Shown one piece after another: positions 50 to 12,266 of a stretch of 12,316 nt of DNA. Origin of the DNA: a virus; UHGV virus genome UHGV-0059442; one strand, written 5' to 3'. Numbering within the stretch: position 1 is the first letter of the stretch; every line of letters begins with the position of its first letter. The notes beneath the pieces were generated by a model that did no database searches, was not told the origin of the DNA, and saw nothing but the letters and a program-made list of their open reading frames with translations. A program made the position numbers and the translations under genes.

Positions 50-532
50 ATGGAAGAACTTCACTTTGTTTACATCAATGCAAATGGTCGTATCGGAGTT
101 CACTCAATACAGAGCATCAGTTATAGCGAAAATCATATACAGGGCATTTGTAAGAACACCGATCGAATAAAAACCTTCCGAAAAGACCGCATTCTTAAAC
201 AGTACGATTCACCAGAACAAGCCATTCAGGAATGCGCGTCATTCCTCCCCGAAAACTACTCACACCTCACTAAGCAGTCTGGTCCGAAAAAAAATACATT
301 CGATGTGTGTTTCACCGGATTTAAGAAAGCAGATAAAGAAAGATTGGTTGATAAGGCGAATGAACAAGGATTAACGGTAAGAACCTCTGTAACCCAAAGC
401 CTTCAGATGCTCTGTTGCGGTTACAATGCAGGCCCATCAAAAGTATCGGCAGCCAGGATGAAAGGCACAATCATCATAGATGAGCCTGGCTTTATACATT
501 TTCTTGAAACGGGTGAGATCCCAGATGAATAA
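50..532 (+). CDS. Hypothetical two-domain protein: N-terminal WYL-like domain, C-terminal BRCT-like domain
   Basis: Complete 160-aa ORF; in-frame stop at 26-28 upstream; AAGAGG Shine-Dalgarno about 7 nt before ATG at 50. N-terminal segment FVYINANGRIGVHSIQSISYSENHIQGICKNTDRIKTFRKDRI fits the WYL-domain pattern ending in R-x-FR-x-DRI. C-terminal segment FDVCFTGFKKADKERLVDKANEQGLTVRTSVTQSLQMLCCGYNAGPSKVSAARMKGTIIIDEPGFIHFL resembles a BRCT fold as found at the C-terminus of NAD-dependent DNA ligases. Noticeably lower GC than the adjacent phage late genes. Confidence 0.5.
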   Translation: MEELHFVYINANGRIGVHSIQSISYSENHIQGICKNTDRIKTFRKDRILKQYDSPEQAIQECASFLPENYSHLTKQSGPKKNTFDVCFTGFKKADKERLVDKANEQGLTVRTSVTQSLQMLCCGYNAGPSKVSAARMKGTIIIDEPGFIHFLETGEIPDE

Positions 533-3076: not shown

Positions 3077-3523
3077 TCATCCCGCCAGCCATTGCAGAAT
3101 CATGTCGCGGGTCATTGCCTCAACATCATCATTTACACCCAGCAGGCGGCGCTCTGCGTAACGGACCTCCGGTCCTTTGCGACTGACGCGATCACGCAGG
3201 CCGTAATGGTGAACACGGGCAATACGCTGCACCTTGCCTTCAAACTGTACGCTGGCAGAGTCGGCGCTGGCGGCAGTTTTCAGGTATTTTGTGGTGCGCA
3301 ACTTTGCAAACATCTGACGTTTGATGCGGCCTTTCTTGCTGCGTGCTGTTACCCTGCGCGGTTCATAACTGCTGCCATCTGGATTGCGCTGCATCCTGAT
3401 ATTCTGCTGCTGTGTCCGGCGCAGTTCCTGCGCCAGCTGGCGCATCATGCGGCTTCTCGTGGCTGGTTCCAGATTCGCCAGCAAGGCACTCAGCCAGTCG
3501 TCCACCTTCTGCAGTTCAGCCAC
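3077..3523 (-). CDS. S: Tail completion / virion morphogenesis protein S
   Basis: 148 aa; position between R and V and the MAELQKVDDWLSALLANLEPATRSRMMRQLAQELRRTQQ... pattern fit the gpS family. Apparent GTG start at 3523, 4 nt after the R stop. Confidence 0.75.
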   Translation of the reverse strand: MAELQKVDDWLSALLANLEPATRSRMMRQLAQELRRTQQQNIRMQRNPDGSSYEPRRVTARSKKGRIKRQMFAKLRTTKYLKTAASADSASVQFEGKVQRIARVHHYGLRDRVSRKGPEVRYAERRLLGVNDDVEAMTRDMILQWLAG

Positions 3524-3947
3524 GTTTCACCGTCCACATTTCTTCAGGTGCATCAGGTTCCGCTATAGCTTCAACGCTCGACACACTGCCGTCAGTGCTG
3601 ACCAGCACACGTTCCGTCAGTTGCAGGTTCAGGCTGATATCACAGACATCGTTGCGCAGAATATCCACCTCAAAGGTGAATAGCTTTTCCCGTAACGCCG
3701 GGTTATTGATGGCATCGGGCTGGTTATCCCTCAGCCACAGCAAAACCGGGGCCATCAGCAGATTCTGGTCGCCGCTGAAATCCTCAATCACCGCGTTCAG
3801 TGTGTAACGGTACTCCCACGACATGGAGCTGGCCCCCGTGGCAACCAGCGAACCGTTATCCACAAACAGATGCAGTTTGTCCGGGTTATTGCGGACATAA
3901 GGCACCGCTTTATTGAGGGCGTGGCGCAGGGATTGTGGTTTGTTCAC
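3516..3947 (-). CDS. R: Tail completion protein R
   Basis: ...KPQSLRHALNKAVPYVRNNPDKLHLFVDNGS...YRYTLNAVIEDFSGD...PVLLWLRDNQPD resembles P2 gpR; I place the start at the GTG at 3947, preceded by an AGGAG SD, rather than the upstream start at 3968. Confidence 0.75.
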   Translation of the reverse strand: MNKPQSLRHALNKAVPYVRNNPDKLHLFVDNGSLVATGASSMSWEYRYTLNAVIEDFSGDQNLLMAPVLLWLRDNQPDAINNPALREKLFTFEVDILRNDVCDISLNLQLTERVLVSTDGSVSSVEAIAEPDAPEEMWTVKRG

Positions 3948-4200
3948 TGTTTCGCTCCTGACACGCAATAATCATGTCCACTTTGTCTGCACAGACCGCC
4001 CAGGCGGCCTCCGTTTCATCCAGCAACGCGTTCAGGCCACCGTTAGTGCGCGGCGCTGCCTGTCCCAGCCGACACGGCGTCACTCGCGGACAACCACTGA
4101 CGGTAAGCTGCACCTCCGGTGAGTGTGGGGCGTTCCCGCAGCCGGATAATGTCAGCAGGCAAAGGTGTATCAGCCCAGCGGCGTAAATCCTCGTTCTCAC
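3910..4200 (-). CDS. lysC: Outer-membrane lipoprotein spanin (Rz1-like), embedded out of frame in lysB and overlapping R
   Basis: Signal peptide with lipobox (MRTRIYAAGLIHLCLLTLSGC), Pro-rich mature part; nested in the +1 frame of lysB and extending into R exactly as P2 lysC does. Start uncertain (apparent GTG at 4200). Confidence 0.65.
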   Translation of the reverse strand: MRTRIYAAGLIHLCLLTLSGCGNAPHSPEVQLTVSGCPRVTPCRLGQAAPRTNGGLNALLDETEAAWAVCADKVDMIIACQERNSEQTTIPAPRPQ

Positions 4201-4471
4201 GTTTCAGTTCCTCAATCCGGTGTTGTCGTTGTCTCAGCAGTACACTGGTCTGTTCTGCTTCGGCATAGAGCCGCGCCTGCTCCCGGTTATTGGTTTCAGT
4301 CAGAATGGACAGGCTGATAAGCTGGCTATTGCTCTTTGCCAGTGCCTGGCTTTTGCTCTGCAGCTCGTCTGCCTGCGTGCTGATGGTCTGGCTGGCATCA
4401 GCCAGCCGCCACGTCTGCCAGCCCAGCGCCGCCAGTAATAACGCCAGCACAACCAGCAGCAACCGGTTCAT
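4043..4471 (-). CDS. lysB: Inner-membrane spanin (Rz-like)
   Basis: 142 aa; N-terminal transmembrane helix (MNRLLLVVLALLLAALGWQTW) followed by coiled-coil-like, Q/E/R-rich periplasmic domain; position immediately upstream of R with lysC embedded. Confidence 0.8.
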   Translation of the reverse strand: MNRLLLVVLALLLAALGWQTWRLADASQTISTQADELQSKSQALAKSNSQLISLSILTETNNREQARLYAEAEQTSVLLRQRQHRIEELKRENEDLRRWADTPLPADIIRLRERPTLTGGAAYRQWLSASDAVSAGTGSAAH

Positions 4472-4575
4472 GCTGATACCTGTTGCGCCATCTGATTACG
4501 GGTGATCCAGAAGGCAATAACGGTCAGTAGATAAAAGACCAGGGTAATAGCCCACCCCGTCCAGCGCCAATCGCT
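4471..4575 (-). pseudogene. Remnant 3' end of the gene preceding lysB (lysA-like membrane protein), ~33 codons
   Basis: Reading the minus strand in the frame whose TGA overlaps the lysB ATG (ATGA) gives ...DWRWTGWAITLVFYLLTVIAFWITRNQMAQQVSA*, a hydrophobic helix tail. The frame is closed by a stop about 35 codons upstream and there is no start, so only a C-terminal stub remains. Confidence 0.4.
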
Positions 4576-5084
4576 TTATGCAGACGCGCCCGTGACTGGT
4601 CCGGCATATCCAGACCGTCTGTCAGCTCCAGCGTCTGCAACAACAGATCGGCATCAAAGCCGGTGGCGGCAAGCATTGCGCTCTGCGCGGCGTCTGCCAT
4701 TTCCTCTGCCAGCACGGTCTGCACGTTGCGGTTACCCAGCGGCATCACCCAGCCATGACGCAGGGCATGACGCCCGATCTCCAGCGCCCCGGCATAATCT
4801 CCGGCATCAATGCGCCACAGCATCACGTACATCAGCACGTCATCCTGTTGAGCGCCTCCGGCAGCCAGGACACCCTCTGCCCAGGCGGCGTACTTCGGCA
4901 GCAGCTCCACCTTGATTTCCGCTTTTTTGACCGTGGACTGAACGCCCTTGAGACGGCGGCGGTCTTCCGCCAGTTGCAGCAGCATCAGGTCATAGCCCGA
5001 TGCGTGGCGAACACTGCCGCCCTCGCGGGCGGCCTGTTCAGCCTGAACGCGCAGGCGATGCTGCCGTGCGGGACTCAGGCTCAT
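4524..5084 (-). pseudogene. M: Terminase endonuclease (small) subunit M, C-terminally truncated
   Basis: MSLSPARQHRLRVQAEQAAREGG...LLPKYAAWAEGVLAAGGAQQDDVLMYVMLWRIDAGDYAGALEIGRHALRHG... matches P2 gpM over about 175 aa, then ends in a non-matching tail (...GRGGLLPWSFIY*) at 186 aa; P2 gpM is about 250 aa. Confidence 0.8.
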
Positions 5085-5087
5085 GGA

Positions 5088-6146
5088 TTACGCTCCGGTT
5101 TCGGCTGCGGCGGCGCTGAAATCACCAATCTGGATGTTTTCCACCAGTGCGGCGCAGCGGTAGTCCTCAACCACATAGGCTTCATTAACGGATTCAAAGT
5201 TTTCAATCCGGTCACGTTTCGGGTTGTCGATAACTGAACGGCGGCGGGTGTCTTCCTGCCAGTAGATGGACAGGTTATCCAGACGGGTGATCAGCAGCGC
5301 ATTCGGCGGGAAGAACGGCGCACGCACGGCCTGCAGGCCACCCATGCGTTTCTGGCTGATGATCATATCGGCAGCCAGTTTTTCACTGTTTTCCTGCTCT
5401 TTGTTGACCAGCGGGAAATACTTGTCAGACAACAGTTCACGACCGCAAATCACCACCAGATCGTCATCGTCCTGGTAAACCACGTCGATAAGCTCATTGA
5501 CGGCATCCATCACCACAGCGTCCAGGTTGGCATATTCGCCACCTTTCCCGACTTTCACCGCACCCGGAGTGGTTTCACCGCCCGTGGTGGTGCTGCCCAT
5601 GACGTGATCCGGTGCATCCTCACGGATTTTCTGCAGCCAGCCTTTGTTCACATCCTGCAGCAGCGGGTTTTCGCTACGGTTGGAGGTTTTCGCACGCTTC
5701 ACGCCGTTAAAGCCGATCATGATGCGGTCCAGTGCCTGACGTTTCACGATGGCGTCACGGATGCGCACCTGGAAATCCTGAAACTTCGCCCACAGATCCA
5801 GCTTCGCGTAGGTCAGCACCGTGTCAAAGTTGGTCTGCTCGCATTTATATTCCACATCGACCATCAGGGTCGGATCGACGGGTTCACGCTCTTTCGCGGT
5901 GGTGTCAGTGGTTCCGGCAATGGTGCTGCCAACACCCAGCCCCAGCAGCTGACCGGACTGCTCAGTCACTGGCGTGACGTTAATCAGCGTCAGGAAAGCG
6001 GCGGACTGCTGGATCTGGTCCTCCAGCGTCTGCTGCACAGACGGCTCCACAGTGAATTTGCTGGACAGTTCTTCAACTGCCACACCGTTCAGACGCGCCA
6101 GCTGCTGCAGGTAAGCGTTAAAAGCAAAGCGGGTATTCTTCTTCAT
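5088..6146 (-). CDS. N: Major capsid protein N
   Basis: 352 aa, size and sequence typical of P2 gpN; immediately downstream of O, with its stop 3 nt before the M start. Confidence 0.9.
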   Translation of the reverse strand: MKKNTRFAFNAYLQQLARLNGVAVEELSSKFTVEPSVQQTLEDQIQQSAAFLTLINVTPVTEQSGQLLGLGVGSTIAGTTDTTAKEREPVDPTLMVDVEYKCEQTNFDTVLTYAKLDLWAKFQDFQVRIRDAIVKRQALDRIMIGFNGVKRAKTSNRSENPLLQDVNKGWLQKIREDAPDHVMGSTTTGGETTPGAVKVGKGGEYANLDAVVMDAVNELIDVVYQDDDDLVVICGRELLSDKYFPLVNKEQENSEKLAADMIISQKRMGGLQAVRAPFFPPNALLITRLDNLSIYWQEDTRRRSVIDNPKRDRIENFESVNEAYVVEDYRCAALVENIQIGDFSAAAAETGA

Positions 6147-6162: not shown

Positions 6163-6996
6163 TCAGCAATTGGTCAGAGTGTCAGCGGGGGCGTTACCGC
6201 CTGTTGCACGCTGGCGGTAGTCCTGGCGGCTGTCTACATGACTCAGCTTATTCACCAGTTCGTTAAAGGCGGTCTGCTGTGCCTGCAGGGCAGTCTCCAG
6301 CTCAGACAGACGTTCTTCCTGCTCAGACAGGGATTTTTCGGTGCGTGCGCTCAGGTTCTGCTGCTCAGTGGCGACCAGCTCCACGGCCTTATGCACATCA
6401 GAGAACCGGGCGTCATCGGACTGCTCTTTTTTGGTAAACAGCGCCGTGACGCGGGCAAACAGGGACGGTTTGTCGTCCTGGACTTCTTCCAGTTCGATCA
6501 CCGTTTCCTCTGCGGCGGTAAAGAGATTGGCGGGATTCTGCTTGCGGTTTGCCAGCGGGTTATGGGCTGCACTGGCGCTGAATGTCAGCATTTCAGTGCC
6601 CAGACTGGCAGGGTCATCAGTGGCAGCCAGGCCGACCAGGTAGGCTTTGCCCGTATCAGCGAACTTCGGGCTGACTTCCATAGAGGTGAATAATTTCTGG
6701 CCTTTTTTCACCAGCTCCACCAGGGACTCCGTTGGCTCAACGTCGGCATACAGCGCCATCTTGCCTGCCAGCGGACCTTCCGTGATTTCTTCAGCAAACA
6801 GCGCCGTCACCTTGCCGTAGCGGTTAAAGGTGCTGTCCGGCAGATAAGACTTGATGTGCTCAAGGTTAATCAGCGCGGTATACACCGCCGGGTTATAGCT
6901 GGCTGCCATCTGTTCCAGCCATTCACGCTGGATTTCGCGTCCGTCGGTGGTGGCACCTTCCACCCCGATGCGAAAACGCTTTGCTTTCACTGTCAT
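6163..6996 (-). CDS. O: Capsid scaffolding protein O
   Basis: 277 aa; FRIGVEGATTDGREI...INLEH...YLVGLAATDDPASLGTE...SDDARFSDVH...ATGG...TNC closely resembles P2 gpO; GGAG SD about 9 nt upstream of ATG at 6996. Confidence 0.9.
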   Translation of the reverse strand: MTVKAKRFRIGVEGATTDGREIQREWLEQMAASYNPAVYTALINLEHIKSYLPDSTFNRYGKVTALFAEEITEGPLAGKMALYADVEPTESLVELVKKGQKLFTSMEVSPKFADTGKAYLVGLAATDDPASLGTEMLTFSASAAHNPLANRKQNPANLFTAAEETVIELEEVQDDKPSLFARVTALFTKKEQSDDARFSDVHKAVELVATEQQNLSARTEKSLSEQEERLSELETALQAQQTAFNELVNKLSHVDSRQDYRQRATGGNAPADTLTNC

Positions 6997-7009: not shown

Positions 7010-7432
7010 TTAGAAAAAACTTACTGGAGCCTTATGGTTGCGGTGATAGGGGCAGTGAAACAATGCGCGGTATTTGTACCGACAACCGTGACGATTGAGA
7101 TACAGGAAATATACCGCTTTCATGAAATCAGTAATTTCAGTTGAGTAATTAAACTCCTGCCTTATGTTGTAATAAGCTACCTCCCTGTTTGCGATCTCAA
7201 ATAAAACTCTGGCGCGAGATATAAACGATTCACAATCAGCGGCAACCTTTTTATAGAGGTTGATTAAATCAGGATTAATATCCGCAACCAGATAGCTGGG
7301 GTAATCCGTCTCCATCATCACAGCACAGGAACCCGCGAAAGGTTCAACCAGTCGCGGGCCAGCAGGAAGGTGTTTTTTCAGTTCGGACATAATGGCGGTT
7401 TTATTTCCCGCCCATTTCAGGATGGTGCTCAT
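7010..7432 (-). pseudogene. dam: DNA adenine methyltransferase (Dam, D12 class), N-terminal ~120 aa only
   Basis: From the internal Met: MSTILKWAGNKTAIMSELKKHLPAGPRLVEPFAGSCAVMMETDYPSYLVADINPDLINLYKKV...FLYLNRHGCRY... carries the AdoMet-binding motif (EPFAGS) and aligns with the first part of E. coli Dam, but the ORF ends at 7010 without the catalytic DPPY motif. Start ATGA-overlaps the upstream traR-like gene. Confidence 0.8.
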
Positions 7433-11039: not shown

Positions 11040-12266
11040 ATGACTCTCCATCAAACTTTATCTAAAGAATTAAGAGATTTATTTGTTAGTATTTTAAGAC
11101 GTTCTCTTTTTCGCCCCCCCATCAAAATAAATGGGGATATAGTCTCTGATTTTTCAAACAGATGCGAGCAGTTCAAAGAGTGCCTAAATGAATACATTTG
11201 TGATAACAATAATGCTGCTTCCGAAAGAGTTAAGCCAAGAATTAAAACTATTGAAAAAATACAACATGGATTAACTAATTCTCTTAAAGCATTTTTATCT
11301 GGCGACATTAAAGGAGCCTACGATATTTTTGATGAAGTTTTATCATACCCTACTGTCTATAGACATCTAAGAAGAATATCCATTCCACTAAAAGAAATAT
11401 GTAATAAGCACAAGCCTTTATTCAGGGTAAGAAAGTCAGATAGACCAGTCGTAACAAGAAAGGAAATATTTCATATCCCATTCACTCATCGACATCTTGT
11501 CAATGCTCAACGCTACTCCGTTGCAGGTTTGCCATGCCTTTACTTAGGTTCATCTCTCTATATATGCTGGCAGGAAATGGATAAACCTGACTTTGATAAA
11601 TTATACCTATCATCATTTATATCTTGGGATGAGGAATCTTATATTTTAAATTTAGCTGCAGATTTTCTTTACAGTAGAACCGCTAAAGGATTTTACGGTG
11701 ATATTAGTAATAGAGATAACCTCATTAAAATATCATATTTAACTTTATGGCCTCTGATAATTGCATGTAATTATTTAAAGCAGAATGAAAACTCTTCATT
11801 TAATCAAGAATATATCATCCCAAATTTGTTAATGCAGTGGATAAGTCGACTTGAAGATAGAGCTATTGTCGGCATAGCATATCGCTCAACAAAAATAAAA
11901 AGAACAGCAAACTCACACTTAGCAACTAATGTCGTCTTGCCTCCAAAAGTAAACTATGAAGATACAATCACAAAACCTTATTGTCAGAAACTATTGTCAA
12001 TGTTTGAGTTTACTCAACCTGTATCATGGCAGGTTTTGAAAACATTAGACTATAAAATTGATAATGAAATAAATCAAGAGCAAGAAAAAGCAATTCATTT
12101 ACTAAAACAGAAAGAAAGATTAAGTGGCATACAAGATTTAAATGAAGATCTTATAAACCTTTATCCTTTAACAGACTTCTACAAGCTAGAACAGTGCATG
12201 GATCGCCTGCTACAGTATGATGTACTTGAGATAAAATCTGGCGGCACTTTGGCGGCAGAGCATTAA
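11040..12266 (+). CDS. RES-domain protein with N- and C-terminal extensions (putative standalone toxin/defence effector)
   Basis: 408-aa ORF, ATG 3 nt after the int stop; strongly AT-rich. Central region shows RES-domain hallmarks: LFRVRK..., AQRYSVAGLPCLYLGSSLYICWQEM (compare the G-R-W-N...P-x-L-Y...E core of RES toxins) and the C-terminal motif IAYRSTKIKRTANSHLATNVVLPP (compare ...PSA...N-x-V-L). About 125 aa upstream and 100 aa downstream of the RES core are unassigned. Confidence 0.6.
   Translation: MTLHQTLSKELRDLFVSILRRSLFRPPIKINGDIVSDFSNRCEQFKECLNEYICDNNNAASERVKPRIKTIEKIQHGLTNSLKAFLSGDIKGAYDIFDEVLSYPTVYRHLRRISIPLKEICNKHKPLFRVRKSDRPVVTRKEIFHIPFTHRHLVNAQRYSVAGLPCLYLGSSLYICWQEMDKPDFDKLYLSSFISWDEESYILNLAADFLYSRTAKGFYGDISNRDNLIKISYLTLWPLIIACNYLKQNENSSFNQEYIIPNLLMQWISRLEDRAIVGIAYRSTKIKRTANSHLATNVVLPPKVNYEDTITKPYCQKLLSMFEFTQPVSWQVLKTLDYKIDNEINQEQEKAIHLLKQKERLSGIQDLNEDLINLYPLTDFYKLEQCMDRLLQYDVLEIKSGGTLAAEH

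Follow-up and report, generated by a model that had tools for sequence, protein, structure and literature searches.

Results

A single deletion joins M to the remnant of a lysA-like gene

The stretch of DNA analysed here, the 12,316-nucleotide (nt) virus genome UHGV-0059442 (the window, hereafter), is a heavily reduced P2/186-like (Peduoviridae) prophage. Its minus strand carries the late genes O, N, a shortened M, lysB, lysC, R, S, V and W, a truncated J, fragments of U and D, and ogr; the right part holds a truncated dam, a traR-like gene, early genes and a CII-like gene, followed on the plus strand by CI, an integrase gene and an open reading frame (ORF) of 408 amino acids (aa). We focus on the junction at window positions 4562-4564, where M, which encodes the terminase small subunit, meets what is left of a lysA-like gene, and on the finding that the M-side end of this junction recurs in other prophages.

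The reference for mapping was the intact prophage of Escherichia coli BE311, inserted at ybjL (locus L001/L011, two coordinate systems). This prophage and Escherichia phage 500465-1 (Wadgaonvirus), both intact E. coli Peduoviridae prophages, match the DNA flanking the junction at 98.8-99.1% nucleotide identity; they share the gene order O-N-M-L-X-holin-lysozyme-LysA-like-LysB-LysC-R-S, with an M of 216 aa and a LysA-like protein of 125 aa, and the order in the window is alike. By blastn, window 7087 to 4562 corresponds to L001 91 to 2615 (98.8% identity), and window 4564 to 1394 corresponds to L001 4501 to 7671 (99.1% identity). Base-by-base inspection and an exact table of microhomologies placed the deletion at 4562..4564: 1,888 base pairs (bp) are absent relative to the intact relatives, the joint is clean, and both parental sequences have only the trinucleotide CTG (minus strand, 4564-4562) in common there, a 3-nt microhomology. 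The lost segment comprises the last 42 codons of M, the genes L, X, holin and endolysin, and 94 codons of the lysA-like gene, so that codon 174 of M is now fused out of frame to the last 31 lysA-like codons. A first-pass annotation of the window had correctly given the P2 order as M-L-X-Y-K-lysA-lysB-lysC-R and had proposed that L, X, Y, K and most of lysA were deleted, with a breakpoint near 4560-4580; comparison with the BE311 prophage bears this out and adds the end of M to the losses.

The shortened gene, M', is the minus-strand ORF 5084..4524, which encodes 186 aa. Its codons 1-174 (4563..5084) are native, with 100% identity to residues 1-174 of the 216-residue reference protein (tblastn). 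They are followed at 4524..4562 by 12 unrelated residues, GRGGLLPWSFIY, and a TGA, which represent the lysA-like remnant read in the wrong frame; the C-terminus reads ...KAIGAGRGGLLPWSFIY. The non-matching tail and the end at 4524 are as first annotated. M' retains a complete Phage_term_smal domain (PF05944; 138.6 bits, residues 35-163, full profile 1-130) and is without its native C-terminal segment. Since full-length M has 216 aa in relatives of this lineage (247 aa in P2, whose gpM is 50% identical to the window M in an alignment ending at residue 173), the 186-aa form is a truncated one.

Directly upstream of lysB lies another minus-strand frame, ...WTGWAITLVFYLLTVIAFWITRNQMAQQVSA, whose terminal TGA (4470-4468) shares bases with the lysB ATG (4471-4469), so that the ATGA of the intact operon is kept. 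This lysA-like 3' remnant (4468..4563, minus strand) consists of codons 95-125 plus the stop: its last 31 residues are identical (31/31) to residues 95-125 of the 125-aa protein that precedes lysB in the reference (tblastn E=1.7e-16), and its hydrophobic stretch corresponds to the fourth and last predicted membrane helix of that protein (Kyte-Doolittle window). Earlier, a hydrophobic stub of 33 codons with a TGA overlapping lysB had been described here; hydrophobicity and overlap hold, and the length is to be corrected, the open frame after the upstream stop having 35 codons, of which 31 are lysA-derived. The sole ATG lies 7 codons before the stop, leaving no usable start codon, and a lysA-like ORF of about 125 aa with four hydrophobic segments is no longer present in the window.

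The 125-aa reference protein belongs to NCBIfam NF038378 (DNZ54_00345 family) and bears the precomputed Pfam label PF28015 LysA in the collection. Its similarity to P2 LysA is marginal and confined to the surviving helix (29% identity over 35 aa, E=0.002); judged by position and this distant similarity, the name lysA appears acceptable. Phage 186 has no lysA at all. Two relatives discussed below (L134 and L138) similarly have no LysA-like gene, the lysozyme gene being followed directly by lysB as in phage 186; because some prophages of the family pass straight from lysozyme gene to lysB, the LysA-like gene would seem to be dispensable or modular.

The same chimeric 186-aa M' recurs in the same gene neighbourhood on 7 contigs that stem from several independent samples (sources: ENA, Logan and NCBI), and the M region is uninterrupted in 982 of the 987 E. 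coli records that contain it. A 38-mer and a 24-mer spanning the joint had no match in GTDB representative genomes or JGI metagenome contigs, and the pattern of the left flank followed by not-T had none in IMG/VR or JGI; the intact version of that left-flank pattern matched more than 120 IMG/VR contigs. The window junction was recovered elsewhere solely through an exact-protein look-up of M', whose protein cluster (P0002) is identical to the window protein. Judging by the aligned sequences, 4562-4564 is the scar of one illegitimate, microhomology-mediated deletion in the late O operon, which is ordinary prophage decay.

The M-side end of the deletion is a recurrent breakpoint

The first further cases came from M pseudogenes in two complete E. 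coli genomes, strain H3 (L007) and isolate 38A23CPO011 (L008). In both, M stops at exactly the nucleotide at which it stops in the window and is joined to differing points in lysB and lysC. With M' as query, a protein search yielded 19 clusters of M fusions, 98-100% identical to M up to the point of divergence, which falls at residue 174/175 in 5 clusters and at residues 179-183 in the other 14. The fusion partners, in or out of frame, are L, X, lysozyme, R, V, invertase, sheath, tube, tape-measure, U and D. Divergence at residues 184-216 was found only as A-run frameshifts, and between residues 148 and 173 in two cases only. Among M homologues from Klebsiella and Salmonella, P0001 and P0026 carry in-frame tandem duplications of ~51 aa and 11 aa, away from this region.

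DNA was recovered and mapped for 14 M-fusion events. Seven junctions (the window, L007, L008 and L132-L135) keep M up to reference nt 2615-2617 with 2-3 nt of microhomology, and all seven are compatible with a crossover between nt 2614 and 2615 or between 2615 and 2616. A second cluster comprises six junctions at 2637-2640 and two at about 2631-2636 (L136-L140, L144-L146). In all, about 13 events fall at 2631-2641, besides the seven at 2614-2616, and the two clusters are 23-25 nt apart. In strain WL297 (L010) the deletion runs the other way, starting in the portal gene and ending at M nt 2632.

In contrast to this fixed end, the right ends all differ. In reference coordinates they lie at 3130, 3335, 3823, 3868, 4501, 4983, 5062, 5370, 6276, ~10650, 11617 (inverted), 12246, 12900, 15308, 15764, 16431, 17060, 17665 and 17945. 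Within the first cluster, the right ends of the window's six independent sibling remnants (4983 in L007, 5062 in L008, 3334 in L132, ~17060 in L133, 3865 in L134 and 16428 in L135) are 0.7-14 kilobases (kb) apart. Because right ends, chromosomal sites and hosts differ, the junctions are not identical by descent. The prophages with hot-spot deletions include some at ssrA and some at ybjL, and their integrase and immunity modules are unrelated; since different integrases and insertion sites are involved, the hot spot is independent of Int or the immunity genes.

By our own arithmetic under a uniform model, 19 fusions in codons 174-183 against none in 184-216 has P about 1e-12. Among 5,426 complete E. 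coli genomes, M is broken in 5-6 records, and at least 4 of these breaks fall within nt 2613-2641; for 4 or more out of no more than 6 breaks in a 600-nt segment to fall within 30 nt, P is below 1e-4. A uniform spread of breakpoints is excluded by these figures. Together, one end that recurs within a few nucleotides, partner ends that vary and microhomology at the joints show that the M-side breakpoint is a nucleotide-precise, recurrent hot spot that has been used ~20 times independently. We found no description of this M deletion hot spot in the literature searched.

A further site was seen in the tape-measure gene (L011 12167-12247, L001 ~15760-15772), where the retained right-hand end ATA/TCTGGTCTG recurs with different left partners: M nt 2639 (L146/P0012), M residue 158 (P0036), the sheath region (L134) and A codon ~665 (P0129). 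A gpO'-T' fusion in E. coli NCTC9041 lies about 10 nt from it. This site is a possible second hot spot.

The lysis cassette keeps its spanins and has lost holin and endolysin

As annotated in the first pass, both spanin genes are retained. The Rz-like inner-membrane spanin gene lysB (4043..4471, minus strand; 142 aa, 99.3% identity to the reference) is intact and scores 173 bits against the curated cut-off of 92.75 for TIGR03495 over residues 3-136. The Rz1-like outer-membrane lipoprotein spanin gene lysC (3910..4158, minus strand; 82 aa, 98.8% identity) is likewise intact, overlaps lysB and R, encodes an LSGC lipobox, and matches NF038368 P2_Rz1 (120 bits, cut-off 27) and Pfam LysC (PF23793, 53 bits). 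The P2 cassette (Y, K, lysA, lysB, lysC) has the same operon layout, and the window LysB and LysC fall in the same curated families as their P2 counterparts; unlike P2, the window has neither holin nor endolysin. The tblastn queries, namely L, X, holin and lysozyme of this lineage and Y, K, L and X of P2, had no match anywhere in the window at E<0.09. A functional P2-type lysis cassette, with holin and endolysin, is therefore absent from it.

Three further deletions remove most of the prophage and damage the late promoter

Relative to the intact prophages, the window, whose element lies at ssrA, lacks the 1,888 bp and three other blocks, and its immunity/integrase module shows ~70% identity or none. 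All four internal junctions have microhomologies of 3-9 nt. At 905-907, ~0.7 kb of D (its 3' part) is missing, with the microhomology TAT; at ~1394-1416, ~9.3 kb are missing with an imperfect 9-nt microhomology (GTCNCGGA), from J' via the tail fibre, sheath, tube and tape-measure genes to U'. The fourth junction (7084-7087, microhomology AACC) marks the loss of ~11 kb with P, Q, A, cargo genes and the 3' part of dam. Together, the four deletions reduce a ~34-kb prophage to a ~12-kb remnant that has lost its genes for replication, packaging, head completion and the lysis enzymes, and most of those for the tail.

The junction at 7084-7087 joins the truncated dam to the O-P intergenic region and replaces the distal TGT of the TGT-N12-ACA dyad that precedes O. 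The late activator of P2 and 186 binds at this dyad, and the late promoter P_O of the window no longer has it intact. Because the distal half is removed, the surviving late genes, spanins included, probably cannot be activated; Ogr-dependent activation of O-N-M'-lysB-lysC-R-S would have been lost. Spanins need holin and endolysin in the lysis pathways of P2 and lambda. Since this requirement is coupled here with a half-deleted activator site, the retained spanins are presumably silent or harmless; the first-pass annotation had taken them to be harmless.

Lysis-gene loss as a probable by-product of position

We consider it likely that the window junction represents a single 1,888-bp microhomology deletion, one of four, whose M end lies at a mutational hot spot, and that the loss of lysis genes is mainly a positional by-product. 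The lysis cassette is situated 0.9-2.5 kb downstream of the hot spot, and for this reason most deletions that begin there lose it. Our inference is that mutation, not selection, makes this site a hot spot.

Selection against lysis seems an unlikely cause by comparison. It would hold that lysogens losing holin and endolysin survive induction, and that lone spanins are kept because they are harmless. The holin is indeed removed in 17 of the 19 mapped hot-spot deletions, and in strain H3 (L007) the M'-lysC' deletion, the only large lesion in a nearly complete prophage, may be the first inactivating event there. However, such selection leaves unexplained a left end that is fixed to 1-2 nt. The deletions in L132 (M'-X') and L138 (M'-L') start from the same hot spot and retain holin and endolysin, right ends are spread over 15 kb, far past the lysis genes, and in the window A, P, Q and most tail genes were also lost, by the three other deletions. 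Given these deletions, the fixed left end and the cassettes kept in L132 and L138, the earlier statement that the junction is consistent with selection against lysis functions is unsupported in that form. Selection for induction survivors may still add to lysis-gene loss.

We give little credence to selection for the truncated protein itself, M(1-174..183), which might, for instance, serve the host as a dominant-negative decoy when P2-like phages superinfect. Such a role would agree with the whole Phage_term_smal domain (35-163) being kept in all fusions, with residues 174-181 being the most variable stretch among lineages, which suggests a linker, and with O, N and M' being kept together in every remnant examined. 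Choice at the level of the protein, however, would allow a break at any nucleotide within ~30 nt, as well as breaks past residue 183, whereas all 7 junctions of the first cluster fit one phosphodiester position and the TG dinucleotides 5 and 9 nt downstream are never used. In addition, the O-promoter activator site is damaged in the window, and M' may not be expressed there.

Neutral random decay, in which the common breakpoint is coincidence or shared ancestry, is highly improbable: microhomology deletions are usual in prophage remnants, and there are four here, but the right ends, chromosomal sites and hosts differ and coincidence is opposed by both P values given above. An assembly or annotation artefact (a chimeric contig, or an M that is naturally short in the lineage) would appeal to the general risk of metagenome contigs and is hardly credible, given an identical M' and neighbourhood on 7 contigs, analogous junctions in closed E. 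coli genomes, a 3-nt overlap that cannot mislead a k-mer assembler and the uninterrupted M of nearly all E. coli records.

Several points nonetheless weigh against the reading of a mutational hot spot with positional loss of the lysis genes. The protein census detects only deletions that leave an ORF starting in M; it was sorted by score, so that breakpoints before residue ~140 are under-sampled, and short-tailed fusions after residue 183 may be hidden in the 90% cluster of full-length M. The window-type junction could derive from the L132 type via the 7-nt repeat CTGGACG, in which case the count of independent events falls by one. The 76-nt control windows for the background rate (in N and upstream M) are confounded by partial alignments of divergent P2-like lineages. 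A small chance must formally be left for selection of a truncated M of 174-183 residues. Finally, of the candidate mechanisms, a CRISPR (clustered regularly interspaced short palindromic repeats) spacer, a pseudo-cos, the gpA nick site and Chi were tested and none was supported.

Candidate mechanisms for the hot spot

CRISPR self-targeting is one candidate. Cas3-type unidirectional self-target deletions likewise have one end near a fixed ~32-nt site, a variable far end and microhomology at the joints. Candidate protospacers flanked by CTT could be picked out by eye, yet no spacer-like match of 28-32 nt was found in the 5,426 complete E. coli genomes, deletion carriers included. Queries of 60 nt and 76 nt covering the site matched only prophages and a few broken M genes, at one place per carrier genome. 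The rejection holds for extant E. coli arrays.

A pseudo-cos site for terminase was suggested by the likeness of GGCG...GAAAGCA to the P2/186 cohesive ends, again by eye. This candidate failed against the lineage's cos, GGCGTGGCGGGGATACGAG: in a local-alignment scan, 338 of 4,502 windows outscored the hot spot with the BE311 cos as query, and 932 of 4,502 with the P2 cos. Elsewhere, between P and O, AGGCGGGGAAAGC (L011 27887-27899), of which the scan matched a 12-nt core, GGCGGGGAAAGC, is identical to the P2/186 cohesive-end core. The lineage's own cos differs in the AGGCGGGGAAAGC part, and remnant L133 (~3975) has a deletion junction inside AGGCGGGGAAAGC.

Three partner sites read TG/GAC, like the gpA origin. 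As for a gpA pseudo-origin, the P2 nick site and its equivalent in the lineage were both located; the breakpoints of A-protein fusions lie at codons 665, ~690, 719-731 and 779 and miss the nick codon (~674), and such fusions are much less frequent than those of M. Chi/RecBCD was rejected as well: no GCTGGTGG adjoins the site, and the nearest Chi-like octamer, GCTGGAGC, lies 65 nt upstream. The inverted repeat at reference nt 2538-2598, a candidate hairpin or cruciform, reaches z = -1.7 only and is kept in the deletions. Integrase-mediated recombination at a secondary site fails on the unrelated integrases of the prophages that use the hot spot.

The pattern of junctions leads us to propose, tentatively, that the ~25-bp site in M of this very common E. 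coli prophage family is a sequence-specific point of breakage, nicking or fork arrest that repeatedly seeds one-sided deletions of the late genes, a proposal that we regard as about as open to doubt as to belief, with doubt slightly ahead. A break, a nick or an arrested fork within GCGCTG/TCCTGAGTGAAAGCAATCCGGCT/TCC would seed the deletion, and the seeded end might then be joined, by way of 1-9 homologous nt, to a partner site further downstream, in the manner of RecA-independent end joining or template switching. The spacing of 23-25 nt between the clusters, together with the lone event in the reverse direction, would fit either a staggered cut through both strands or a bound factor and its footprint. 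From the flanking genes and the K-12 map, the replication fork presumably passes M 5'-to-3' at both ssrA and ybjL.

Bierne, Ehrlich and Michel reportedly described deletion hot spots at terB/Tus arrest sites and at the nick sites of the M13 and pC194 origins. There, likewise, one end is fixed within a few nt, the other is variable and the joints have short homologies; the deletions run ahead of the fork, as they presumably do at the M site. The M site differs from these in that no Ter-like, ori-like or cos-like sequence was found at it.

Setting and neighbouring genes of the remnant

On the carrier contigs, an element identical to that of the window adjoins the transfer-messenger RNA gene ssrA, with smpB, ratA, bamE, recN, nadK and grpE as neighbours; by this gene context, the insertion site of the window prophage is beside ssrA in an E. 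coli-type chromosome. Upstream of M, in the same operon, lie the major capsid protein gene N (5088-6146) and the scaffold protein gene O (6163-6996), both on the minus strand and identified by the labels PF05125 / PF05929 for the N/O pair and by blastn to the reference. The tail completion gene R (3516..3968, minus strand; PF06891, 156 bits) is next in the O operon after the spanin genes and is 97.9% identical to the reference. Rfam, promoter and terminator scans returned nothing relevant.

The 408-aa ORF (11040-12266, plus strand) is located directly downstream of the integrase gene at the prophage edge and is present on every contig that carries the remnant. It had no Pfam or NCBIfam match, and may be a cargo or defence gene. 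Between ogr and ssrA, a 160-aa ORF (50-532, plus strand) has weak BRCT/DNA-ligase-like matches below the curated cut-offs; the phage record NC_049342 has a 483-bp 'DNA ligase' coding sequence at the same relative position, a possible counterpart.

Discussion

Taken alone, the window junction is routine decay without wider consequence; of greater weight is that its M-side end recurs. Our results also carry a warning, in that the loss of lysis genes is not to be read as adaptive without a mutational null model. A general framework for 'grounded' prophages has been set out (PMC6379469). If the M site is indeed fragile, the hot spot would be a built-in weak point that 'grounds' prophages and dismantles them in a stereotyped way, and the nuclease, roadblock or DNA structure responsible would be a new player in phage-host genome dynamics. 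Prophage decay would then not be a random walk, and what genes a remnant contains, with O, N and M' kept and the genes for lysis and tail lost, could be predicted from the mechanism and not from selection.

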